The notes: a model not told the origin generated them from the sequence alone. A stretch of 64,000 nucleotides of DNA from Terriglobia bacterium (GCA_021325035.1 JAJPHW010000138.1:6910-70909), one strand, 5' to 3'. Positions 8,336 through 59,705 are shown, numbered from the stretch's first letter. Numbers and translations are program-made.

Positions 8336-10315
8336 TTACTTGTGTGGAGGGCGTGGCGCTTCCATCCGAGGTGCTGGAGCCGATGGTCTCGGAGCAGAAA
8401 CCGGCCGCTGTTGCTGCCAAGTGTTGAACTTCTGCTCTTCGCGCTGCTGCACCTCCGGCCGGTTCTGCACGGGTGGCGCAGGCCGTACCTGTGGATTTGG
8501 TTCGCGTGCCGGTTCCGACCCGCGCTGATAGCCGTTCGCCGCCGGTGGCCGCGGTACTGGTCGCTCTTGCGGAGCGGTTTGTCTTTCTGGTTGCGGCTCG
8601 CGTGCTGCGGGTTGCGCAGGACGTGGCTGCGGCTCGCGAGCTTCCGGCTGCGCCGCACGAGGCTGCGCAATCGGCTGCTCCGGTCGGCTCACTTGCGGTT
8701 TGCCCTGCTCTTCGAGCGTGGCAGGGTGCGGTTTCTCTTGCGGAGTTTCCGTCCTGACATTCGCGGGCGTATTTTGCCGCTGTTCGAATGATGGCCGCGG
8801 CGGCGAGGGATTCCGCGTAGCCACAACCTGCCGGTTCATCACGGCCACCGGAGGTTTGACTCGAGCTGGCGCTCCCGCCCCAATCACGCTGGCACGTACC
8901 GGCTGGGCAGGCGCTCTGTACGTCACTGGAGCGCTCGCCAACTTTGCATCCACCGGAGCCAGATTGCGGGCCACAGGCCGCGCATTCACGAATGTTTCAT
9001 GGTTGACCGCGGTAATAGCATTGGCCACGCGCAAGTTGGTGTAAACCGGCCTGACCACGGTGGTGGTGTTGTTGTTATTAATAATCGTTGTGTTGTAAAC
9101 ATTCGTCACCTGCGTCACGTTCACCTGCGTATTGGTGATGTTGACGTTATTCACATAGCCGCGGCTGCCGCGATACCAAGGAACGTAAACTTCGCGCGGC
9201 GCCAGCGGAAACCACGCCACGCCCGCTCCAAACGCCGGGCCGCCGCCTACAAAAGCTACGAGCGCAGGCGCGTACACAGGACGCACAACGACCGGCCCGG
9301 GAACCCAGCACCATCCCCCGCCATAGAAAGCCCAACGCCCATAGTGGAAGGGAGCAAAGCCCCAGGGTTCATCTTCCACCCAGGTCCACCCCCACGGTCC
9401 GACCCAAACCCAGTGGCCGAAACGATAAGGCGCCCAACCGACTGGAACTCCCGTCGGACGCCACACCGGACCGTAGTCGCCCGCGTAGCTCCAGTTGCCA
9501 TATTCGTCGAGGTCTTCGGCGCCCGTCATCTCCGGAGAAATATAGTTCACCGATTGCGACTGGTCTTCACGCTGGTCGCGGCTCGACGCCCAATTGTCGA
9601 AATCGTCGTTGGGTGGAAGCTGGTTGATGTCATGATTCAACTGGTCAGTCCCGTTGAACACCGCCTGCTGCCCCGCGATGACCACATAAGACTCGCCGCC
9701 GCCCGTGACTTCGCCGCGTCCGCGCCAGACGGTGGTAATTGTCTGGTCGCCTGCGGAGTTCACATCTACACGGTAATCACCCACGCGCTGAATAGTGAAC
9801 GCCAGGTTCGGCGTATCCACTTCAAACAAATCTTCATCGTCGAGGTGGCGCACTTTCAGAATGATCGTGCCTTGCGAAAGTTTGATCTGCGTGGTGCGGT
9901 CATCGAGTTCGAGGAAAGTCACGCTCGTCTCCGAGCTCATTCGCAGTGCGGTAGAACCAATGTGCAGTTCGGCGCGGGAATTTTGGTCAGCCCACAAATT
10001 GTCGCCTGTAGTCAGCGGACGGTTCGGCACAGCCTGCACCCAATCGCCTTCGCCGCCAGGCTGGAACGATACTGATCCCTCAGAGTAATTCAGACGCGCA
10101 ATCCGCCCCGGAGGGTCTTGCGCGGGTGCTTGCCCCTGATCGGGCGGCTGTCCTTGTCCCTGGTCTGGGGGTGGTCCCTGATCCTGCGGCGGGTATTGTT
10201 GCTGGTCCTGGGCTACAGACACGAGCGGGGATTGCACCATCAAAATTCCCGCCATAAAAACCGCGACTGCAAGAAGTCTTCGTAAATTCATGGAATTAGC
10301 CTCGTAGCGGCGCAA
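8336..10315 (-). CDS. Secreted FecR/DUF6600-like protein with Trp-rich and Pro-rich low-complexity regions
   Basis: 659-aa ORF with a signal peptide. It has PPDQGQ repeats, a FecR-like beta-sandwich region (RIARLNYSEGSVSFQPGG...TIILKVRH), a W/G-rich block (GHWVWVGPWGWTWVEDEPWGF) and a Pro/Ala/Gln/Arg-rich tail. Confidence 0.7.
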   Translation of the reverse strand: MRRYEANSMNLRRLLAVAVFMAGILMVQSPLVSVAQDQQQYPPQDQGPPPDQGQGQPPDQGQAPAQDPPGRIARLNYSEGSVSFQPGGEGDWVQAVPNRPLTTGDNLWADQNSRAELHIGSTALRMSSETSVTFLELDDRTTQIKLSQGTIILKVRHLDDEDLFEVDTPNLAFTIQRVGDYRVDVNSAGDQTITTVWRGRGEVTGGGESYVVIAGQQAVFNGTDQLNHDINQLPPNDDFDNWASSRDQREDQSQSVNYISPEMTGAEDLDEYGNWSYAGDYGPVWRPTGVPVGWAPYRFGHWVWVGPWGWTWVEDEPWGFAPFHYGRWAFYGGGWCWVPGPVVVRPVYAPALVAFVGGGPAFGAGVAWFPLAPREVYVPWYRGSRGYVNNVNITNTQVNVTQVTNVYNTTIINNNNTTTVVRPVYTNLRVANAITAVNHETFVNARPVARNLAPVDAKLASAPVTYRAPAQPVRASVIGAGAPARVKPPVAVMNRQVVATRNPSPPRPSFEQRQNTPANVRTETPQEKPHPATLEEQGKPQVSRPEQPIAQPRAAQPEAREPQPRPAQPAAREPQPERQTAPQERPVPRPPAANGYQRGSEPAREPNPQVRPAPPVQNRPEVQQREEQKFNTWQQQRPVSAPRPSAPAPRMEAPRPPHK

Positions 10316-17092: not shown

Positions 17093-18661
17093 TTATTGGC
17101 AGTTCCTGAACTTGAACGACGTGATGCGCGTCGCCCAATTCGTTCCGTTCGTCTTGCCATATTCCTGGGTGTACCAGAAGGTGCAGTCGTCAGCGGGATC
17201 CAGGCTCATGCTGCTGTAGTCTCCCCAACGATTGCTGCCCTGTTGGATTCCGGTTCCTTTTACGATCACCGCCGGAGCTTCCATAGTTCCCAGTTTGTCG
17301 GTGGCCAGGCGTCCGGTGTAGGCGATGCTCGGATCAAGCGTGGAACTACTCGCGCTGAAGCCCAACGCCATGTTGCCCATCTTGTCCATGGCGACGCTAC
17401 CCATCCAGATGCTGATGGTTGGGTGTTGCAGAGTTCCCGATTGATAGAGCGAGAACGTTCCACCCGGAGTTGCGCGCAGTTCGTACCAGCGAACGTCCGA
17501 AGCCGCAGTCGAGTTCTTGTTCGGCGCCACCGAATGCGTGACCACCATGGACTCGTGATCGCCAAAGTTGCGATAAGCCAGGCGGTACATCAGGCGGTCG
17601 CCAAGACCATCAAGAAGCGCTCCGCCGCTGGGCTGGGGAATGCAAGATCCGCCGCCGCCACCGCACAGCGTGGTATAGACCGGAACCTTGATCACGTTCG
17701 GGCCGGTGAAGGTGGCGTTGTTGGAATTGGAGAAGTCCACGTGGAACTCGTATTCGTTCAAAGTGCTGGTGTTGTTGCCCAGTTCTACGTAGTGGTTCGG
17801 CTCACCCGCCGGAGGCGGAGTCGCACCATCCAAGTCGGAAGGCATGAAGCTGAAGTTCGCAGCGTTGGGAGTGAAGCACTCCATGGTGGCAGCTTGTCCG
17901 GCCAGCATGGCCGTGCGGTCAAGAGCGCAAGGCTCGCCGTAACCAAAACCGAAGGAGTTCACGGAGAGGTAATAAGCATCCGGCCAAACCGCAAGCTTCG
18001 GATAATCCGGCAGGTTGCCGCCGAAATTGAAGACATAGCGGTTGTAGCTGCCGGTTGCGTCCGAAGTCGTAGAAACTGCGACGCAAACCTGGTTGGTAGT
18101 GGTGTACTCCAACTGCTCCACCAGCCAGCGCTGCGCCAGCTTGTCCCACAGAACAATCGGGTCGCCGCCGTTGTACTGCTGGCATTGGCCGCCAAATCCA
18201 GCCCAGATAACATTGATCCGCGTCGGAGCCAGAATCTGGTTGCCAGATTTGTCATAGACCGCATAGTCAAAGTTGGTGATTTCGACGTACTGCGTCGCGC
18301 CCACGGAACCATTCGTGTCCGGAGGAATCGCGCCGCCTTCGTTCCCATCCACTCCGTCAAAGCTCAAACCTTTCACCGTCGAAACTTCAGAACTGTAAGT
18401 TTCCTGCACCACCGGATCGGCTCCGGGCGTCACGTTAAAAATATGTTTGGGGGAACGATGCTCACGCATTTCCACCTGTCCGGCGGCTGGCTTGGGAGCG
18501 TTCTTGGCCATCTCGCGGAGTGGTTGCGAAACATCGTGTTTAACTTCGCGGGTCACCTGCGCGCCGCGTTGCACTTCCGCGGAAGCTACAGAACCCAACA
18601 AAATACAGGCCGCTGCGAGGCCCGTGAACATCCTCATGCCGGAACTCTCTTTCATTAGCAT
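17093..18661 (-). CDS. Secreted hypothetical protein (propeller-like, family not recognised)
   Basis: 522-aa ORF with a signal peptide (MRMFTGLAAACILLGSVASA). Motifs seen: PPDTNGSVGATQYVE and RWGDYSSMSLDP. The 520-aa + strand ORF is its antisense mirror. Confidence 0.7.
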   Translation of the reverse strand: MLMKESSGMRMFTGLAAACILLGSVASAEVQRGAQVTREVKHDVSQPLREMAKNAPKPAAGQVEMREHRSPKHIFNVTPGADPVVQETYSSEVSTVKGLSFDGVDGNEGGAIPPDTNGSVGATQYVEITNFDYAVYDKSGNQILAPTRINVIWAGFGGQCQQYNGGDPIVLWDKLAQRWLVEQLEYTTTNQVCVAVSTTSDATGSYNRYVFNFGGNLPDYPKLAVWPDAYYLSVNSFGFGYGEPCALDRTAMLAGQAATMECFTPNAANFSFMPSDLDGATPPPAGEPNHYVELGNNTSTLNEYEFHVDFSNSNNATFTGPNVIKVPVYTTLCGGGGGSCIPQPSGGALLDGLGDRLMYRLAYRNFGDHESMVVTHSVAPNKNSTAASDVRWYELRATPGGTFSLYQSGTLQHPTISIWMGSVAMDKMGNMALGFSASSSTLDPSIAYTGRLATDKLGTMEAPAVIVKGTGIQQGSNRWGDYSSMSLDPADDCTFWYTQEYGKTNGTNWATRITSFKFRNCQ

Positions 18662-18819: not shown

Positions 18820-19584
18820 TTACGGCTCAGGTACGAAGCGATATCCCACGCCACGGACGGTGAGCAAATAGCGCGGGTGCGCCGGATCATCCTCAAGATA
18901 ACGGCGCAGCCGGACGACGAAGTTGTCAATGGCGCGCGTGTCTGTGTCTTCGTGCAGTCCCCATACTTCTTCCAAAATTGATTTGCGCGATACGACACGC
19001 CCTTGATTGACAATCAAATGACGCAGAAATTCGGCTTCCATCAAAGTGAGATGGATGACGTTCTCTTTGACCCGCAATTCCAGCTTGCCGAAATCAATGG
19101 TGCGCCCGCCAAAGGTAAATACGCCGTACTCCGCGACTTTTGCGGTGGGATTCTGTTCGTTTTCTGTGGAAGTGTTTTCGCGGCTCTGCTGCATCCATTC
19201 GCTGCGGCGCAGCAACCCTTGCAGGCGGGCTAACAAAATCGCCAACTCGAATGGTTTCGGTAAATAATCGTCCGCGCCGGAAGCGAAGCCTTTCAGCACA
19301 TCTTCGGGGCGGCCCCGCGCGGTCAACATCAGGATGGGAACAAATTTTTTAGCGGCGCGAAGCTCGGCGGCAACTGCGAATCCATCTTTGCCGGGAAGCA
19401 TAACGTCGAGAACGACCGCGTCAAATTCCTTAGGCGCTTTGTCGCCGTTTTTCGGTTTCAGCAACAACTCCAGCGCGCTTTCGCCATCACCGACCACAAC
19501 GACGTTGTGTCCTTCGGCTTCGAGATTAAACCGAAGTCCCTGCGCGATATGCGCTTCATCTTCGACGATAAGAACGCGGCTCAT
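18820..19584 (-). CDS. OmpR-family response regulator (REC + winged helix)
   Basis: 254-aa ORF with VLIVEDE, the phospho-acceptor region AVVLDVMLPGKDG, DDYLPKPF and a C-terminal LTVRGVGYRF winged helix. Confidence 0.9.
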   Translation of the reverse strand: MSRVLIVEDEAHIAQGLRFNLEAEGHNVVVVGDGESALELLLKPKNGDKAPKEFDAVVLDVMLPGKDGFAVAAELRAAKKFVPILMLTARGRPEDVLKGFASGADDYLPKPFELAILLARLQGLLRRSEWMQQSRENTSTENEQNPTAKVAEYGVFTFGGRTIDFGKLELRVKENVIHLTLMEAEFLRHLIVNQGRVVSRKSILEEVWGLHEDTDTRAIDNFVVRLRRYLEDDPAHPRYLLTVRGVGYRFVPEP

Positions 19585-19598
19585 ACTTATATTTGTAC

Positions 19599-20519
19599 TT
19601 ACGAAGGCCGCACCGGAGAGAGCCTTCGCGGCAAATCCATCACCACCGTCGTTCCCTGCCCCACGCCCGGACTCTGCGCGAACACGCTCCCGCCATGCTT
19701 CTTGGCAATCGAACGCACGATAAACAACCCCAACCCGGTGCCTTTCACCTGCCCCAGAGCGCGGCTGGGAACGCGATAGAAACGCTTAAAAATTCGTTTG
19801 AGTTCGTTCGCGGGAATGCCCACGCCGTGATCGCGCACGCTCAAAATCACTCGCTTGGTGTCGGGCGTATCCACACGCACGGCCACATCAATATTTTCAC
19901 CCGAATATTTGATCGCATTCTCAATCATGTTGGTAACGGCCGTGCGCAACTCTTCTCCATCGCCGAGCACGCCCGCGCCTTCACTGTTGCTCGACAACTG
20001 AAATTGCAAATGCTCTTCCGATAAATGATGGCGTGTGCGGGCCATTTCCACACACTCGCGCACCAGCCCGCCAAAATCCAGCAGCACGCGCTCTGGCGGC
20101 GTTTTCTTGTGGATAGCCTCGCCCGCCTTCAGCACCTGCTCCACCGTTTTCAGCAAACGGTCCGAATCGTCGAGCATGAGCCGGTAAAACTCTTTGCGCT
20201 TGGCTTCCTCCACTTCGCGGCTTTGCAGGGTTTGGAGATAAAGGCGAATCGAAGCAATCGGCGTCTTCAGTTCGTGGGTGACGGCGTTGATAAAGCTGTC
20301 GTGCTGCTCATTGCGTTTGATTTCGCGGACGAGAAAAATTGTATTGAGAATCAGCCCGGCGGAAATGGCCCCGAAAAAGATGATGCCGAGAAAAACTTTA
20401 ATGCCTTCGCGCCAGTTGAAAATGATCCAGCCAAAACCGACGGCCACCGCGATGGAAGCGAGCGTCACCCCCAGGACGAGAAAGGTGATCGTCGCCTTGC
20501 GGCGGCTGGAAATGCGCAT
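19599..20519 (-). CDS. Sensor histidine kinase (two TM helices, HisKA + HATPase_c, no obvious sensor domain)
   Basis: 306-aa ORF with H-box THELKTPIASI, N-box NMIENAIKYS and a G-box GTGLGLFIV. It ends 14 nt upstream of the response regulator. Confidence 0.9.
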   Translation of the reverse strand: MRISSRRKATITFLVLGVTLASIAVAVGFGWIIFNWREGIKVFLGIIFFGAISAGLILNTIFLVREIKRNEQHDSFINAVTHELKTPIASIRLYLQTLQSREVEEAKRKEFYRLMLDDSDRLLKTVEQVLKAGEAIHKKTPPERVLLDFGGLVRECVEMARTRHHLSEEHLQFQLSSNSEGAGVLGDGEELRTAVTNMIENAIKYSGENIDVAVRVDTPDTKRVILSVRDHGVGIPANELKRIFKRFYRVPSRALGQVKGTGLGLFIVRSIAKKHGGSVFAQSPGVGQGTTVVMDLPRRLSPVRPS

Positions 20520-29139: not shown

Positions 29140-30945
29140 TTAGGGCAGCTTGAAGTTCACCGTGATTTGGGTCTCGATATCAATCGCCTGCCCATCGAGA
29201 TAGTAGGGCTTGTATTTCCATTGCTTCACCGCATCCGTGGCGGCGCCAGCCAACACAGCATCGCCGCTTAAGGTCTTCACGCTGGTAATGCTGCCATCTT
29301 TGCCGATATGGGCGTCCAACAGGACTGAGCCTTGAATGCGAGCCGACATCGCCTGCGGCGGATAAGTTGGATTCACGCGCTTGATGAGCAAGCCTTGTGA
29401 AACTCCCTGCGAAACTTTAATGGCCTGCCCCGAAGGCTTAGGCACATTTGCGGGTACAGAACTGACGATGCCGGAAAGAGCATTTTTGCTGGCATCGCTC
29501 GCGGCGACATCCATGCTGGGGGCTTCCGGAGCCGGTGTTTCAGCTACAGGCGCGGGGGGCGGTTGAGGCGCTTCATTCTTCACAAGAAGCGGAGCAACTT
29601 CTGCTGCTGCTTCGGAATTCTTCGCGGATGCGCTGGATTTCTCGGACTTCTCCGAGGTTTTGTCAGTCTTGTCTGCGGACTTTTCCGGAGATGTATTGGA
29701 CGAGGGTTTTGCGGGCTGAGTGTTCGAAATCTGCGAAGAAACTTGCGCTGCCGGTTTGGTTGACGTCGTTGACGTTAAGGCACTCGACTGCGAATTCGGT
29801 GTAGCCGTTGGAATCGGCGCGCTCTGCGACGCTGCCGGAGACGCCTGCGACGATTGCTGCGCTGGCGCGGCCGTTGGATGATGCGATTTGCTGACCACAA
29901 AATAACCCACTGCTGCCAAAGCTAAGACCGCCACGGCGATGATGCCAATCTTCTTGCCGCTGCCGTCTCCGGAAGCATCGGCATCCGCCGAGCCCGAGAT
30001 GGAAGAAAACATGGGAGCGTCGGAGTGCGTGATTTTTGCAGTTGCGAAGTCCTGGGTGTGGCTTACTTCGGGCGCCGACTCTTCTGTTTTCGGCAAGTTG
30101 AAAACGGTTGCCGCGGCTTTGTGTTCGGCTGGCTTTACTTCCGGCTCGATGGCCTTAACCGGCGTGGCTTCTTTTGCCGGCGCGACTTCTCTTGCCGGTG
30201 CGGCGGCGGCGCCGCTGGAAGCGTGAGCATCCGAGAAAGCAGGCGCGGGCTTGGAAATTTTGGTTTCACTGGCTGCGGGCCACGAATTTTTCAGCGGATT
30301 GACGGGCGTGGGCATGGACTCAAGCAATGCCGCATCATCGGGCGTGGCTGCGGGAAGCGGTTCTGGCTCCAACTCCAAAGCAGAAGCGGCGATTGCAGGA
30401 ACGGCTTTTGCAGGAGCGGGAGGCGGTTGCGGAATATGGATTGCCGGTTTGGCGGCAAAAGTCTGCACAGGCGCGCTCTCGGCGCGAGTGACGGGTTGTG
30501 CGGGTTTCTGCGCGGCAGGCGCGGATGGAGCAACAACTGATGGCGTTGATGTTGTTGTCTTTGGAGCTTCGCCTTTTTTCAGCAATCCCCGGGCGACGCG
30601 CAAGGTGCCCTTGGCCTGCTCGACGTTAATCGGCTTGGTTAAAACAAGATTGGCCCCCAAGCGGAAAGCTTTGGCGACGCCAGCTTGATCACCGACAACG
30701 GCTACGGTCAAAGCAGCCTGATTCATCTCGGAATTACGCACGCTCTTGAACATCAACGCCGCATTCTGGTCATTGTCGCAGTCCACAACCACGGCATCGA
30801 AACGCTGGGCCATCAATTTCTTGACAGCGGCAAAGGCTTCGGTGCAGGGTTCGACGGTAAACTCGACATCGTTAAGGACTTGCGTCAAAACGCGGGTAGT
30901 TTTTTCATCCGGGCAGAAAATGAGCGCAGCGTAGTTCATGGCCAA
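29140..30945 (-). CDS. REC-like domain / Pro-Ala-rich linker / single TM / TonB C-terminal domain fusion protein
   Basis: 601-aa ORF. The N-terminal receiver-like fold shows ALIFCPDE, AVVVDCD and LVLTKP. It has a central TM (IGIIAVAVLALAAVGYFVV) and a C-terminal TonB_C (RVNPTYPPQAMSARIQGSVLLDAHIGKDGSI...KYKPYYLDGQ). Start is TTG 30945 or ATG 30939. Confidence 0.75.
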   Translation of the reverse strand: MAMNYAALIFCPDEKTTRVLTQVLNDVEFTVEPCTEAFAAVKKLMAQRFDAVVVDCDNDQNAALMFKSVRNSEMNQAALTVAVVGDQAGVAKAFRLGANLVLTKPINVEQAKGTLRVARGLLKKGEAPKTTTSTPSVVAPSAPAAQKPAQPVTRAESAPVQTFAAKPAIHIPQPPPAPAKAVPAIAASALELEPEPLPAATPDDAALLESMPTPVNPLKNSWPAASETKISKPAPAFSDAHASSGAAAAPAREVAPAKEATPVKAIEPEVKPAEHKAAATVFNLPKTEESAPEVSHTQDFATAKITHSDAPMFSSISGSADADASGDGSGKKIGIIAVAVLALAAVGYFVVSKSHHPTAAPAQQSSQASPAASQSAPIPTATPNSQSSALTSTTSTKPAAQVSSQISNTQPAKPSSNTSPEKSADKTDKTSEKSEKSSASAKNSEAAAEVAPLLVKNEAPQPPPAPVAETPAPEAPSMDVAASDASKNALSGIVSSVPANVPKPSGQAIKVSQGVSQGLLIKRVNPTYPPQAMSARIQGSVLLDAHIGKDGSITSVKTLSGDAVLAGAATDAVKQWKYKPYYLDGQAIDIETQITVNFKLP

Positions 30946-31010
30946 ATCGTAAGTACATTCGTTTTGCCCAGCAAGTTACGCAGGTAATTGTATTTTCGAG
31001 TTTTTATGGG

Positions 31011-32423
31011 TTAGCGCTTCGGTTGGGGGAAATTCACCCTCACCTGGGTCTGAAATGCGACGGGCTGGCCATCCTGATAGTAGGGCTGGTATTGCCACTG
31101 TTGGACGGCTTCCTGCGCAGCCAGTGTCAGCATGGGATTTCCGCTGACCACATCGGTCGATTGCACGGTTCCGTCAGCTGCGACGTTCGCGTTCAGCACG
31201 ACTGCACCCTTGATGTGAGCATGACGGGCTTTTGTGGGATACCAGGGCGCGACACTATGAACGATGTGCGCGGCAGCCAAGTCTCCGGGCACGGCAACAG
31301 GCTGCGCATTGTCAGCCGCAGGCGCGGTGGATAAGGCCGATGCATCGGGCGGAGTATCTTGAAAACCTTGCGCCAGCGTGGATGGATCGGGAGCGGCTGG
31401 AGCAGCATCGGGCTGGGCCGCAGTTGCAGCCGCATCCGTGGGCGCGGCTTGAGTCGCAGGAGCTGGCTCCGGAGTTACAGGAGCTACCGGCGTGGCCGCA
31501 ACGTTGTGATGCACCAAGCGCGCATACTGCCATGCAATTGCGCTGCGGACTCGCGGCTGGAATGCCAGGGCCGCGATAGCAACAGCAGCCACCAACAATC
31601 CGATGATCACACCGCGATTGCTTTTCTTTTGTGTGTCCCCAAGCATGGCGAACGAAGGCGTAGCCACAGGCGTTTGCGCGCGGGGAACAGGCGGCTTGTT
31701 TTCCACCTGCGGCGCGGGAATTTTTGACGCGACGCTCTTCTCGACAGGCTGTGGAGCTGCCGGAGCTGCCTTGTGTTCAGCTGCTGGCGAGGCTTTTGGA
31801 GCTTCAACGGGAAGTTGCTCATTCGCCGGCTTGCTAAGGGCACGCGCAGGCGCGGCGGCTGCACCCTGGGCTGAAGCTGCGATCACAGGTTCCGACGCAG
31901 CGGCAGGTTGAACTCCTTCTGGAGCTTTCGGCGTAGCAAAAGTGCGAAATGAATTCGTGCTTAACGGTGACTCCAGCTCCGGCGCTGAAGAAGTTGGCGT
32001 GGCTGGAGGCTGAGAAACAGTGGCAGCCGCAGCGTGGGCTTTACTTTCCTGGGTATCGCGGCGCTGCATTGCCAGGGCGTTCCGCAACGTGGTGCGGGCC
32101 TGCTCCATGGAGAGCGGCTTGCTCAATACGGTTTTTGCGCCCAGGCGAAAAGCTGTGGGGACACCGGCTTTGCCGTCCACCATGGCAACGGACATAGCGC
32201 CGTGATTGATGGTGGAGCCGCGCAGGATCGCAAAAATCTGCGTGGCGGATTGCAAAGCATCGCAATCAACAAGAACTGCGTCGTATCCCTCGGAAGAGAT
32301 TTTCTTGACGGCGGTAACAGAATCCGAGCAATGCTCGTAAGACACCGCCAGTTCTTCAAAAATAAGAGTGAGAATTCCCAGCGTTTTCAAATCGCTGGAG
32401 AAAACGAACGCTCGCTGGGCCAT
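31011..32423 (-). CDS. REC-like domain / linker / single TM / TonB C-terminal domain fusion protein (paralogue)
   Basis: About 470 aa. Receiver-like motifs AFVFSSD, AVLVDCD and VLSKP are present. It has a central TM (VIIGLLVAAVAIAALAF) and a TonB_C (VAPWYPTKARHAHIKGAVVLNANVAADGTV...QYQPYYQDGQ). An alternative TTG start lies at 32447. Confidence 0.75.
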   Translation of the reverse strand: MAQRAFVFSSDLKTLGILTLIFEELAVSYEHCSDSVTAVKKISSEGYDAVLVDCDALQSATQIFAILRGSTINHGAMSVAMVDGKAGVPTAFRLGAKTVLSKPLSMEQARTTLRNALAMQRRDTQESKAHAAAATVSQPPATPTSSAPELESPLSTNSFRTFATPKAPEGVQPAAASEPVIAASAQGAAAAPARALSKPANEQLPVEAPKASPAAEHKAAPAAPQPVEKSVASKIPAPQVENKPPVPRAQTPVATPSFAMLGDTQKKSNRGVIIGLLVAAVAIAALAFQPRVRSAIAWQYARLVHHNVAATPVAPVTPEPAPATQAAPTDAAATAAQPDAAPAAPDPSTLAQGFQDTPPDASALSTAPAADNAQPVAVPGDLAAAHIVHSVAPWYPTKARHAHIKGAVVLNANVAADGTVQSTDVVSGNPMLTLAAQEAVQQWQYQPYYQDGQPVAFQTQVRVNFPQPKR

Positions 32424-32474
32424 GCCTGATGGTACGAATGGCCGCAAGAATGCCGCAAGTTACCGTGGTGTGGG

Positions 32475-34520
32475 CTATCCAGCAGTCACAATATCCAGGG
32501 CTTTTTGGGCGGCCGTGAGAAGGGCTTCGGCGCCCACCGGTTTGCCAGTGGCATTTTGCATCCACAGATCGGGCGTAAGACGGCCCATGGTGGCCATGCG
32601 CTCAAACTCGGGGCCGATGCTGCCGGCTTTTTTCATCTGCTCTTCGATTTGGTGGGAAATCAGGTGGCCGATGGGATAGTCGGGCAGGTACATGAAGGTA
32701 TCAATCATGTGCGAATAGACACCAAGAAGCGTAACGTCACGAACCCCAAAAATGGGAGCATAGAAGCGGTTCCAGGTATCTCTGGAGATTTGCAGAACTG
32801 CCTGCTTGAGTTCTGCCGGCGAGGCGTCGGGATGGTCGTACATCCAGTGCCAGACGGCGATGTCCACAAGCGCGACGGCGCTGATTTCGCAGGTGGCCCA
32901 GAAATCGTTAAGCGTTTTTTCGGCTTGGCTGCGAGCGTCGGGAGCGGGCAAGTCGAGCAGTTCGAGATCGTGACCTTGAAATAAGAATGCAAAAGCTTCA
33001 GTAAAAGATGTGTTGGGAACACCGCGCATGAGCGTGAAATCAACATTATTGAGGGAAAAGACTTGCTCGACGTTGTGGCCCATTTCGTGGGCGGCGACGT
33101 TAAAGCTTTTGTAATCCATCCCAGTTTTTGCGATGCGAGTGCGCAGGTGCGCTTTTTCGGAGCGCATGCCAGCGCTCATGGCGTGACCGGAGCCGCGCGC
33201 AGGATCGACGGCGATTTTGCCGGCGAGATATTGGGCGCGTTGCGAAGAAAATCCCAGTTTACCGAGAAGATTAGGAATGTCCTGTTCGTAAGATGCGGGC
33301 GTCGGGTACCGTTTGGCTACAACCGCATCCAACTCAGATTCGCTTTGCTGACTTCCGGGACGAAAACCGCTGTACCAGATGTCGAATGGTTCGAGCGGGC
33401 GGCCAAGACGGGACTGAATCAGTTTGGCGACCTTGGGCATGAGCGGAGAAGTCAGCGTTTGCTCGAGCATGGCCTTTACGCGCTCTTCGGGAATTTCGCG
33501 GTCTTCGTCGAAGCGGCGGGCAATGTGCGTGGGCGCGGTAGGCGAATATGGATCGGCTTTGCGGGCTGCATGGAAAGTTTTGAGCAGCATGGCATAGCGC
33601 GTATCCGGCTCGGCGGCGCTGCTGATTTCGCGTGAAGGAATTGGATCACTCGAGTCATTAATATTGCTGGCAGAGACCTGGTTGGTGAAGGGGTTCCAAT
33701 CCGCTGCGGGGTTGTTGACGACTGCTGCGGGAATGGTTTGATCAATCACGCGCTCCATCACGCGCTGGATCATGCGCTGCTTACGCAGGCCATTTTCTGG
33801 ATCGCTGTAGTTGGATTTGATTTCGTCACGCAATCCCCAATGGCTGAGCAGACGCATCTTTCGCGGAAAAAGGCGCTGGCCATCATCGGTTAGAAGATGG
33901 TGCATCCAGATGTTGTATTCAGCAATGTAGCGGCCGGAAACAGCTTCTGCCTGAGTTACCGCCTGACCTACCCAAGCGGGGATGCGTTTATCGAAACGTT
34001 GCGCCAGACGAATTTCTGCCCATTCGCGGCGGGAGCGTTGGGCGGCATCTTTGGTGCGCTCTTCTAATGTAGTGAGCGGAAAATTCAGCAACACAACGAA
34101 GCCGAGTTTGTTATCGAACATGTCGTCGGTCATTTGCGCGCCGGGATAGTAGCCGCCGAAAATTTCATCCACCGGAAGGACGGGGCCAAGATCAAGGTCA
34201 ATCTGCTGGCGGAATTGGCGATAAATCTCGTGCATGTGTCCGTCGAGTTGTTCGAAGAGGGTCTCGAAGCGATGAAAGAGCGCGTCGAGCGTAACGGCAT
34301 CTCCGGCAAAATAAGTACGAACGGTGTCTTCAAAAACCTGCTGGTCGCCATCGGTTTCACGCCAGAATTGCGCGACCTGATGCAGGCCGCGGCGGGCGCG
34401 CTCGCGCTGCGATTCGCCATGGATGGCGACGAGATCCGCTTCCAGTTTGGTGACCGCTTGATCCATCCAGGCTGGCGCGGTATTTTGAGATGCAACTTCG
34501 GGAACTGCGATAACAGACAT
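32475..34520 (-). CDS. Putative gluzincin zinc metallopeptidase (HEMGH...E), family uncertain
   Basis: 681-aa ORF without a signal peptide. It has AAHEMGHNVEQ followed 25 residues later by TEAFAF, the M2/M3/M32-like HExxH+E spacing. Confidence 0.55.
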   Translation of the reverse strand: MSVIAVPEVASQNTAPAWMDQAVTKLEADLVAIHGESQRERARRGLHQVAQFWRETDGDQQVFEDTVRTYFAGDAVTLDALFHRFETLFEQLDGHMHEIYRQFRQQIDLDLGPVLPVDEIFGGYYPGAQMTDDMFDNKLGFVVLLNFPLTTLEERTKDAAQRSRREWAEIRLAQRFDKRIPAWVGQAVTQAEAVSGRYIAEYNIWMHHLLTDDGQRLFPRKMRLLSHWGLRDEIKSNYSDPENGLRKQRMIQRVMERVIDQTIPAAVVNNPAADWNPFTNQVSASNINDSSDPIPSREISSAAEPDTRYAMLLKTFHAARKADPYSPTAPTHIARRFDEDREIPEERVKAMLEQTLTSPLMPKVAKLIQSRLGRPLEPFDIWYSGFRPGSQQSESELDAVVAKRYPTPASYEQDIPNLLGKLGFSSQRAQYLAGKIAVDPARGSGHAMSAGMRSEKAHLRTRIAKTGMDYKSFNVAAHEMGHNVEQVFSLNNVDFTLMRGVPNTSFTEAFAFLFQGHDLELLDLPAPDARSQAEKTLNDFWATCEISAVALVDIAVWHWMYDHPDASPAELKQAVLQISRDTWNRFYAPIFGVRDVTLLGVYSHMIDTFMYLPDYPIGHLISHQIEEQMKKAGSIGPEFERMATMGRLTPDLWMQNATGKPVGAEALLTAAQKALDIVTAG

Positions 34521-59282: not shown

Positions 59283-59705
59283 TTAGGCTATGCCAATTTG
59301 GCTGACTGTGTTCTTAGGTTGATCGATGTGGCGTTTTGGGCCGCGCTTCCGCACCAACAACAAGCGAATGCGCTCGAGCAATTCGGCGGGAGCGCACATG
59401 CCTTTAGGAAGAAACGCATCGGCGCGTGTGTCGTGTTGATAGATTTTGGCCTTACCGGAGGTGAGAATTACGGGAGTGTGCGGAGATAGGCCTTTGATTT
59501 CTTCGATCAAGCGCGCTCCATCCACGCCGGGCATGATCAGATCGGTCAGGACGAGGTCCACTCCGCCCTTTCTGAAACGGTCTAAAGCGTCCTGCCCGTT
59601 GCTGCACGTAATCACACGATAACCGCGGGTTTCCAACATCACCTTGCGGATGGAGAGACATTGCTCATTGTCGTCAATGCACAAAATCGTTCGTTTCGGC
59701 TTCAT
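59283..59705 (-). CDS. Single-domain response regulator (CheY-like)
   Basis: 140-aa ORF with ILCIDDNE, the phospho-acceptor region DLVLTDLIMPGVDG, and ILTSG...FLPKG. Confidence 0.85.
   Translation of the reverse strand: MKPKRTILCIDDNEQCLSIRKVMLETRGYRVITCSNGQDALDRFRKGGVDLVLTDLIMPGVDGARLIEEIKGLSPHTPVILTSGKAKIYQHDTRADAFLPKGMCAPAELLERIRLLLVRKRGPKRHIDQPKNTVSQIGIA

Follow-up and report, generated by a model that had tools for sequence, protein, structure and literature searches.

The 64,000-nucleotide stretch of Terriglobia bacterium DNA analysed here (GCA_021325035.1, JAJPHW010000138.1:6910-70909; hereafter the window) carries two neighbouring open reading frames (ORFs) on the minus strand, at 29140..30945 (601 amino acids, aa) and 31011..32447 (478 aa), each with a TTG start. 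Database orthologues and gene calls use internal ATG starts, which give 599 aa for the product of gene A and 470 aa for that of gene B, the upstream member of the pair. The start of B, MAQRAF, is matched by the orthologue P0121 (470 aa, 95% identity). The two proteins have a common layout, consisting of an N-terminal domain of the CheY fold, a disordered Ala/Pro linker of ~150–200 aa, one transmembrane helix, a disordered Pro/Ala/Ser spacer and a TonB C-terminal domain (CTD) (Table 1). Over 123 aa the N-terminal domains share 41% identity (E 3e-30), and the C-terminal regions can be aligned too; by these alignments, A and B are true paralogues that share the same layout.

An earlier description of the window, made from the DNA letters without database searches (the sequence-only reading), had presented the pair as tandem paralogues joining a cytoplasmic receiver-like domain to a TonB domain across a central membrane helix. 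The ORFs, the paralogy, AlphaFold2 modeling and the TonB_C scores all agree with that description, the compartment being a prediction, and the motifs quoted in it (AVVVDCD and AVLVDCD, LTKP and LSKP, PDE and SD) are present in A and B. In the full-length AlphaFold2 model of A (76 orthologues), a receiver-like domain (residues 1–~122), the transmembrane helix and a confident C-terminal domain (residues 513–599; predicted local distance difference test (pLDDT) above 90) are separated by disordered segments with pLDDT below 50.

The C-terminal domain scored well above the model cut-offs in both proteins, with 70.2 bits for A and 64.1 bits for B against PF03544 (TonB_C, cut-off 24.6 bits) and 49.1 and 38 bits against TIGR01352 (cut-off 27.1 bits). 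In the PDB, the A domain matched V. anguillarum TonB2 by sequence with an E value of 3.5e-9 and E. coli TonB with one of 5.6e-5, the YP motif being in register. Structure comparison with Foldseek placed it close to P. aeruginosa TonB1 bound to FoxA (TM-score 0.83, root-mean-square deviation (rmsd) 1.4 Å; best E value for a TonB CTD 7.5e-6), and its best structural matches were TonB CTDs caught on their transporters (FoxA, TbpA and BtuB). Judged by profile, sequence and predicted structure together, this is a genuine TonB CTD, in line with the TonB_C assignment of the sequence-only reading.

An architecture this unusual might come from mis-assembly or mis-calling of separate response-regulator and tonB genes, and its oddity is all that speaks for such an origin. 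Both ORFs are uninterrupted, collinear full-length orthologues occur in hundreds of independent assemblies, complete chromosomes among them, and TonB_C is also present in 97/101 family representatives of ≥500 aa. These observations rule out a fusion artefact, to which we assign a negligible likelihood.

Table 1. Positions of genes A and B, their domains and other features of the window
Feature	Position	Strand	Basis
Gene A, 599-aa receiver-like/transmembrane/TonB_C protein; A-type, a widespread orthologue group	29140..30939	−	ORF; identical 599-aa database protein P0001 with the same ATG
A residues 1–122, predicted pseudo-receiver (CheY fold), cytoplasmic in the predicted topology	30574..30939	−	Profile, AlphaFold2, Foldseek
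A Cys 9, 32 and 54	~30913–30915, 30844–30846, 30778–30780	−	Residue conservation
A residues 123–330, disordered Ala/Pro-rich linker, predicted cytoplasmic	29950..30573	−	Composition, pLDDT <50
Juxtamembrane motif in A, residues ~309–316	~29992–30015	−	
A residues 331–350, single transmembrane helix	29890..29949	−	Kyte-Doolittle, AlphaFold2 helix
A residues 351–512, disordered Ser/Ala/Pro-rich spacer, predicted periplasmic	29404..29889	−	Composition, pLDDT <50
A residues 513–599, TonB CTD with YP motif	29143..29403	−	PF03544, PDB matches, pLDDT >90
Gene B, 470-aa paralogue of the same architecture; B-type, narrower distribution	31011..32423	−	ORF, gene call, orthologue
B residues 1–~122, predicted pseudo-receiver (FVFSSD, LVDCD, LSKP)	32058..32423	−	41% identity to A domain; 178 bits against family profile
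B residues 271–289 (470-aa protein), single transmembrane helix	31557..31613	−	Kyte-Doolittle
B TonB CTD	31014..31247	−	PF03544, TIGR01352
Terminator-like hairpin, 14-bp stem and T-run, directly 3' of the A stop codon	29092..29122	−	
681-aa gene, 28–50 nt upstream of B, possibly co-transcribed	32475..34520	−	Conserved HExxH…TEAF signature
Nearest HisKA/HATPase kinase and OmpR-type regulator pair, ~9 kb from A	18820..20519	−	
Stand-alone 140-aa receiver	59283..59705	−	
FecR-like/DUF6600 protein	8336..10315	−	

The receiver-like domain and its active site

The N-terminal domain of A scored 27.6 bits (E 3.5e-6) and that of B 16.1 bits (E 0.013) against Pfam Response_reg (PF00072), both under the gathering score of 30.2 bits; domains from other subfamilies scored 16.9–26.7 bits, and some family members lie above the cut-off in precomputed annotation. 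Searching the PDB with the single A sequence gave CheY2 as the best match (9.4e-6), together with DrrD and FrzS. A family profile built from 26 sequences of at least four subfamilies matched 65 PDB sequences (60 listed), CheY at 4.3e-7, and with the exception of one de novo designed protein the matches were all receiver domains or receiver-containing constructs. AlphaFold2 modeled the A domain with high confidence (pLDDT 92.4, predicted TM-score 0.87) in the order β1α1…β5α5 of a (βα)5 fold. The top 50 Foldseek matches of this model were all receiver domains (best TM-scores 0.79–0.83, rmsd ~2.4 Å), and its structural matches include the pseudo-receivers FrzS, CpaE-N and AmiR. Because the profile-to-PDB and structure comparisons agree, we accept, on profile and model evidence, the receiver homology and fold as established despite the sub-threshold Pfam score. 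The receiver assignment made by the sequence-only reading thus holds for homology and fold and falls short at the Pfam threshold, a check which that reading had itself proposed.

Two of the canonical active-site positions are strictly kept. D53, which corresponds to the phospho-acceptor D57 of CheY at the end of β3, is invariant in 26/26 profile sequences and 142/142 further representatives, and K102-P103 (CheY K109-P110, the Lys at the end of β5) is invariant in the 26 profile sequences and present in 141/142 and 142/142 representatives, respectively. The acidic pair after β1 is incomplete: the position of CheY D12 holds a Pro/Ser/Gly-type residue, leaving D11, aligned to CheY D13, as the sole acidic-pair residue (Asp or Glu in 140/142 representatives). 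Its register is ambiguous: a gap of one residue in α1 is required by the profile alignments, and without that gap D11 would fall at DD+1. No Ser or Thr occupies the equivalent of CheY T87 at the end of β4, which falls on V82 or residue 83; at the latter, A has Gly, B has Asp and 141/142 A-type representatives have Glu.

The same segment shows a local peculiarity of A. Residues 83–84 (~30688–30693, minus strand) lie in the string V-V-G-D-Q in A and its closest relatives, compared with V-V-E-G-Q in 141/142 other A-type representatives. By alignment, this is a lineage-specific swap within an otherwise near-invariant segment at the Thr-equivalent position.

A pseudo-receiver has been defined as a recognisable receiver without at least one of DD, D, T and K (PMC12632262). 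With one DD residue and the Thr/Ser absent, the N-terminal domains of A and B are by this published definition pseudo-receivers that keep the acceptor Asp and the Lys. They share with FrzS, the CpaE N-domain and AmiR the (βα)5 fold, an incomplete catalytic quintet, a conserved α4β5α5 surface and an aliphatic residue at K+2; in contrast to FrzS, they keep the acceptor Asp, without exception. The aliphatic class at K+2 is enriched in pseudo-receivers (PMC12632262), and in our family this residue is Ile in 137/142 representatives. Within the receiver, conservation across at least four subfamilies is highest in α4, the β5-α5 loop and α5 (entropy 0.78–1.15 bits); the ends of β3 and β4 come next, and α1/β2/α2 reach 1.7–2.1 bits. 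In solved pseudo-receiver structures, α4β5α5 forms the dimer interface in all but four (PMC12632262). What sets A and B apart from described pseudo-receivers is their output, a transmembrane helix and a periplasmic TonB_C domain, for which we found no counterpart among regulator outputs described in the literature.

These features bear on whether A and B are true, if atypical, response regulators. In that case an orphan histidine kinase or a small phosphodonor would phosphorylate D53, and phosphorylation-driven dimerisation of the receiver would change how active or how available the TonB domain in the periplasm is, with consequences for outer-membrane transport or trans-envelope signalling. 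The phospho-regulated version is kept alive because D53, K102 and D11 are invariant or nearly so across subfamilies and in the 142 further representatives. Two of the five catalytic residues are gone, however, the first Asp being replaced by Pro/Ser/Cys-type residues and the Thr/Ser by Val, Glu, Gly or Asp, and the ambiguous register weakens the case for the remaining metal-binding acidic residue. Substitutions at DD, T or K need not abolish phosphorylation (PMC12632262), and the members that pass Response_reg in precomputed annotation favor the same view, against the sub-threshold scores of A and B themselves. Kinases and regulators are encoded in the window, yet within the ~56 kb considered for context (~4.3–60.5 kb, the part of the window with gene calls) none is adjacent to the pair. 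In the best 80 related loci, whose neighbours we clustered for comparison, kinases occur in only 16, at a distance of 7–9 genes. Nor would an allosteric change be transmissible through a disordered linker of 200 aa. We consider this explanation a serious one but, on balance, unlikely. The phosphorylation-type signal proposed in the sequence-only reading is not supported in the form given there: an acidic-pair residue and the Thr/Ser are lost, even though Asp and Lys are invariant.

Cysteines offer a further possibility. In A-type proteins, strands β1, β2 and β3 carry C9, C32 and C54 at their C-terminal, active-site ends, where these residues flank the acceptor Asp. Among the 142 A-type representatives C9 is found in 141, C54 in 140, C32 in 112 and all three in 110, and these three residues make up nearly all the cysteines of the ~600-aa proteins (2.9 of 3.0 per protein). 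Strands β2, β1 and β3 are neighbours, in that order, in the sheet of the CheY fold. Such a triad beside the acceptor Asp suggests, from residue conservation, a redox or metal site, so that a thiol/disulfide or metal switch could replace Mg2+/phosphoryl chemistry and control receiver dimerisation. A precedent exists in RitR, an atypical regulator that undergoes redox dimerisation through Cys (PMC12632262). B-type proteins, however, retain C54 only, and a Cys at D+1 may be merely a small hydrophobic residue. We judge a redox or metal switch quite improbable as the explanation of the family; it is compatible with the tether model set out below and does not exclude it.

Membrane helix, linkers and relation to TonB

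A and B each contain a single strongly hydrophobic segment, spanning 333–351 in A and 279–297 in B (ORF numbering), with Kyte-Doolittle 19-residue maxima of 2.73 and 2.46, respectively. Neither protein has a signal peptide. The helix lies centrally, at residues 331–350 of 599 in A and 271–289 of 470 in B, so that in the predicted topology ~270–330 cytoplasmic residues precede it. In 174 relatives, Lys and Arg number 2.30 per 12 aa on the N-terminal side of the helix and 1.18 on the C-terminal side. An N-in/C-out topology, as the sequence-only reading also had it, is predicted from the single helix, the lack of a signal peptide, this N-side excess of Lys/Arg and the usual compartments of receiver and TonB_C domains.

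The segments on either side of the helix are rich in Pro and Ala, as previously noted, with 18–32% Ala and 13–17% Pro across the linkers of A and B. The spacer of A (355–520, ORF numbering) contains 19% Ser, 18% Ala and 13% Pro, and that of B (300–395) 32% Ala and 16% Pro. Conservation is distributed very unevenly along the chain: the identity of A to 74 orthologues is 78% in the receiver, 71% in TonB_C, 39% in the transmembrane helix and 26–27% in the linkers (27% in the periplasmic spacer). By this measure the receiver is the best-conserved part of the family, and its identity, the highest of all regions, argues that it is not decorative.

A few short islands are conserved in the cytoplasmic linker of A, namely DDAALLESM, GAAAAPAR and a juxtamembrane P-x-F-S-S-[IL]-[GS]. 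The last belongs to a more general motif, [PAST]-x-F-[SGAT]-x-[LIFMV], found 13–21 residues N-terminal of the helix in 58% of proteins, compared with 0.8% of control linker windows; B has PSFAMLG ~17 residues ahead of its helix. The islands are not docked on the receiver in the full-length model of A, where the linkers are simply disordered. Across some 200 disordered, poorly conserved residues between receiver and membrane, allosteric gating through the chain is implausible, and coupling would therefore have to proceed by recruitment, clustering or a change of oligomeric state and not by chain conformation.

In E. coli TonB, a Ser-x3-His signature in the transmembrane helix couples the protein to ExbB/ExbD. 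This signature is absent from the family, since no His occurs in the helix core of any of 174 relatives; its absence and that of the receiver Thr/Ser are the two features that the sequence-only reading had missed. Classical TonB proteins (E. coli TonB, P. aeruginosa TonB1, V. anguillarum TonB2) resemble A and B in how the CTD reads and folds, in its YP motif and in having a Pro-rich spacer on the periplasmic side. In contrast to A and B, they have a short cytoplasmic N-terminus and an N-terminal transmembrane helix with the Ser/His motif, and are usually linked to exbBD. A and B thus depart from TonB in three defining features: the N-terminal anchor, the transmembrane signature and the short cytoplasmic tail.

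The pair might nevertheless be classical energy-transducing TonB paralogues with an N-terminal extension, energised through the helix by an ExbB-ExbD complex encoded elsewhere and opening specific TonB-dependent transporters. Bacteria with many TonB-dependent transporters commonly possess several TonB paralogues. The CTD, YP motif and spacer fit this explanation, as does the source annotation of the family, 'TonB family protein'; the NCBIfam models behind the family are domain-level only. The membrane helix fits it poorly, being central, only 39% identical and devoid of His, and an extension would not be expected to be the most conserved part of the protein. TonB proteins 'in general lack a cytoplasmic domain' (PMC8262864). 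We also found no exbB or exbD, no TonB-dependent receptor and no adjacent kinase in ~4.3–60.5 kb of the window, and no exbBD among the conserved neighbours in the 80 related loci; the sequence-only reading had likewise seen neither exbB/exbD nor a cognate kinase beside the pair. This alternative is improbable. The suggestion of the sequence-only reading that the receiver gates TonB-dependent transport is not supported as put forward: gating presupposes a TonB that works, no part of these proteins resembles TonB less than the helix does, and the disordered linker of ~200 aa stands between receiver and membrane.

TolA is also a bitopic, envelope-spanning protein with a related CTD fold. Its domain II, however, is a long helix, in contrast to the disordered Pro/Ala/Ser spacer of A and B. 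Membership in the TolA family was rejected, with scores of 14.4 and 14 bits against PF06519 (cut-off 25) and 20.7 bits against tolA_full TIGR02794 (cut-off 59.45), and TolA CTD structures matched the A CTD weakly in Foldseek (E 0.05–0.1).

Family, analogues and a possible mode of action

The family is large. A word-indexed search returned >3,700 matches, of which the top 120 were all collinear and full-length (~560–630 aa, ~45% identity). An exhaustive search with the N-domain profile gave 437 clusters (50% identity) at E ≤ 1e-30 and 1,446 at ≤ 1e-10, with the receiver-like domain nearly always at the extreme N-terminus. The sequence-only reading had proposed mapping the distribution of the fusion, and A-type proteins proved to be present in at least 407 species-representative genomes, a figure drawn from a tight A-type alignment and thus counting A-type only. 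The best 80 loci are all from Acidobacteriota (Terriglobia, Terriglobales, Acidobacteriaceae, 'Ca. Sulfotelmatobacter' and one 'Ca. Solibacter'), and by these loci the family has so far been found only in Acidobacteriota (Terriglobia). B-type proteins are rarer, with about two dozen full-length orthologue clusters, and the tandem order B-then-A occurs in 20/80 loci.

Relatives with a central transmembrane helix and TonB_C carry other N-terminal domains. These include PilZ+GAF–transmembrane–TonB_C (818 aa) and GAF–transmembrane–TonB_C (~590 aa) proteins (P0166, P0170–P0172), and the juxtamembrane motif is also visible in the GAF–TonB_C relatives. They are an uncharacterised parallel to A and B and not an explanation of them. 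P0162- and P0169-type relatives have N-terminal domains without a domain assignment. Since GAF or PilZ+GAF replaces the receiver on the same chassis, the chassis appears to have repeatedly recruited cytoplasmic signalling domains, and the GAF and PilZ+GAF relatives argue that it is built for control by cytoplasmic signals. Taken together, P0166, P0170–P0172 and the P0162/P0169-type proteins suggest a broader class of cytoplasmic-sensor TonB-like proteins, and the existence of GAF and PilZ fusions in parallel points to a general principle and not a one-off. No description of a REC–TonB_C or a PilZ/GAF–TonB_C architecture was found in the searchable full-text literature, in keeping with the earlier statement that no characterised example was known.

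The closest design precedent comes from gliding motility. In the Agl-Glt system of Myxococcus xanthus, GltJ (AgmX) and GltG (PglI) combine, like A and B, a cytosolic regulatory region, a single transmembrane helix, a flexible periplasmic region and TonB-C, and here too two paralogous TonB-like proteins act in one system. GltJ consists of a cytosolic ZnR-linker-GYF module, one transmembrane helix, a flexible region and TonB-C, and the module recruits MglA-GTP and AglZ to the envelope machine (PMC11135422). It works by partner binding and not by allostery, and we propose the same for A and B. The differences lie in the module, which is ZnR-linker-GYF in GltJ and receiver-like in A and B, and in the phylum. 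Membership in the GltJ/GltG family was rejected: the AgmX/PglI C-terminal model NF033768 scored 12.3 and 14.6 bits against a cut-off of 40, there was no ZnR/GYF match, and no glt/agl genes lie nearby. By analogy of layout, GltJ is the best characterised counterpart of A and B, which do not belong to the GltJ/GltG family.

We tentatively favor, with slightly less than even confidence, the view that A and B span the envelope as tethers or adaptors under cytoplasmic control, rather than classical TonBs energised by ExbBD. The view starts from the domain identities, the fold, the residue conservation, the single transmembrane segment, the distribution and the absence of partners in cis. From these we infer the topology, the binding of TonB boxes, the tethering and recruitment mode and independence from ExbBD. 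In such a model, A and B would be bitopic inner-membrane proteins in which long, disordered, fast-evolving linkers join a cytoplasmic pseudo-receiver, a passive transmembrane anchor and a periplasmic TonB CTD. The TonB_C domain would bind the TonB box of outer-membrane proteins of the TonB-dependent-transporter type through β-strand pairing, in the manner of solved TonB CTDs. The receiver-like domain, through its α4-β5-α5 face and active-site loops, would form dimers, either A–A or A–B, or contact a conserved partner in the cytoplasm. Information would then pass by recruitment, clustering or a change of oligomeric state, as with the cytoplasmic ZnR-GYF module of GltJ.

Several points weigh against the tether model. 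The binding of TonB boxes by the CTDs of A and B is deduced from the fold and the YP motif. The near-invariance of D53, K102-P103 and D/E11 (142/142, 141/142 and 140/142) is hard to explain with a dead phosphorylation or metal site, which argues that some chemistry at the Asp site persists. The exbBD genes may lie elsewhere in the genome. The absence of SxxxH is judged by the E. coli paradigm only. Finally, no obligate partner in cis emerged from the neighbours in the 80 loci.

A broader and bolder proposal, which we put forward as speculation and regard as rather unlikely, is that A, B and their GAF and PilZ sisters form a 'sensor-TonB' class in which a cytoplasmic signalling domain controls the periplasmic engagement of outer-membrane TonB-box proteins by TonB. 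Within this class, the receiver, with its Asp/Lys site and Cys triad, might read phosphorylation, redox state or metal. If true, it would amount to a new output class of two-component type, and outer-membrane transport in a phylum that dominates soils would be subject to a new level of regulation.

The TonB of the textbooks has next to nothing in the cytoplasm, and the action of response regulators is almost always confined to the cell interior. Acidobacteriota, for which TonB-dependent uptake is of great importance, rank with the most abundant soil bacteria and with the least understood. Against this background, A and B are at once a TonB-like protein with a cytoplasmic regulatory module and, equally, an atypical response regulator with a new output, in a general design for which GltJ is the precedent. 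The union of a receiver-type switch with a TonB domain in the periplasm hints at a direct route from cytoplasmic signalling to the outer membrane. Should the Asp site be active, the family would provide a new response-regulator output; should it be inactive, it would be a clean and abundant model of how a pseudo-receiver with a retained Asp works. This is a genuine and widespread family, uncharacterised but under strong constraint, and is relevant to both the TonB and the two-component fields, the mechanism given here being our proposal.

Genomic neighbourhood

Along the minus strand, the genes run in the order pyruvate dehydrogenase (PDH) E1-E2-E3, a large MscS-type channel, a 681-aa protein, B and A, followed by a convergent glycerate kinase gene. 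The upstream PDH E1-E2-E3/MscS synteny is common across the 80 loci, which most simply reflects the relatedness of the genomes. A strong terminator-like hairpin follows A and none was found between the 681-aa gene, B and A, which makes co-transcription of the three plausible.

The 681-aa protein gave no Pfam, NCBIfam or PDB sequence match above cut-off. It has a conserved HEMGH…TEAFAF signature and no signal peptide, and its gene is found near the A-type gene in 28/80 Terriglobia loci. On the strength of the signature, the protein may represent a novel gluzincin-type metallopeptidase family.

The three other signalling loci of the window, namely the kinase/regulator pair, the lone receiver and the FecR-like protein, do not adjoin A and B. 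Two further genes recur at related loci. One encodes a multi-transmembrane protein of ~209 aa with no Pfam match (L009 6764..7387, minus strand, and equivalents) and lies, in divergent orientation, just upstream of the A-type gene in 47/80 loci by clustering and 48/80 by phmmer; it is absent from the window. Every combination of the 681-aa gene (28/80), this membrane gene (48/80) and the tandem paralogue (20/80) is seen among the loci. The other encodes a protein of ~220–232 aa (L008 14859..15521, minus strand, and equivalents) that combines a receiver-like N-terminal part with a region matching HisKA alone (23 bits) and lacks an ATPase domain. It lies 3–6 genes downstream of the A-type gene on the opposite strand in 26/80 loci and, from its domain content, could be a phosphotransfer-type protein.

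Elsewhere in the window, only one of two near-coextensive long ORFs is called as a gene, and the called one has no Pfam match; the two lie on opposite strands, at 17093..18661 (−) and 17096..18658 (+), and encode 522 and 520 aa.

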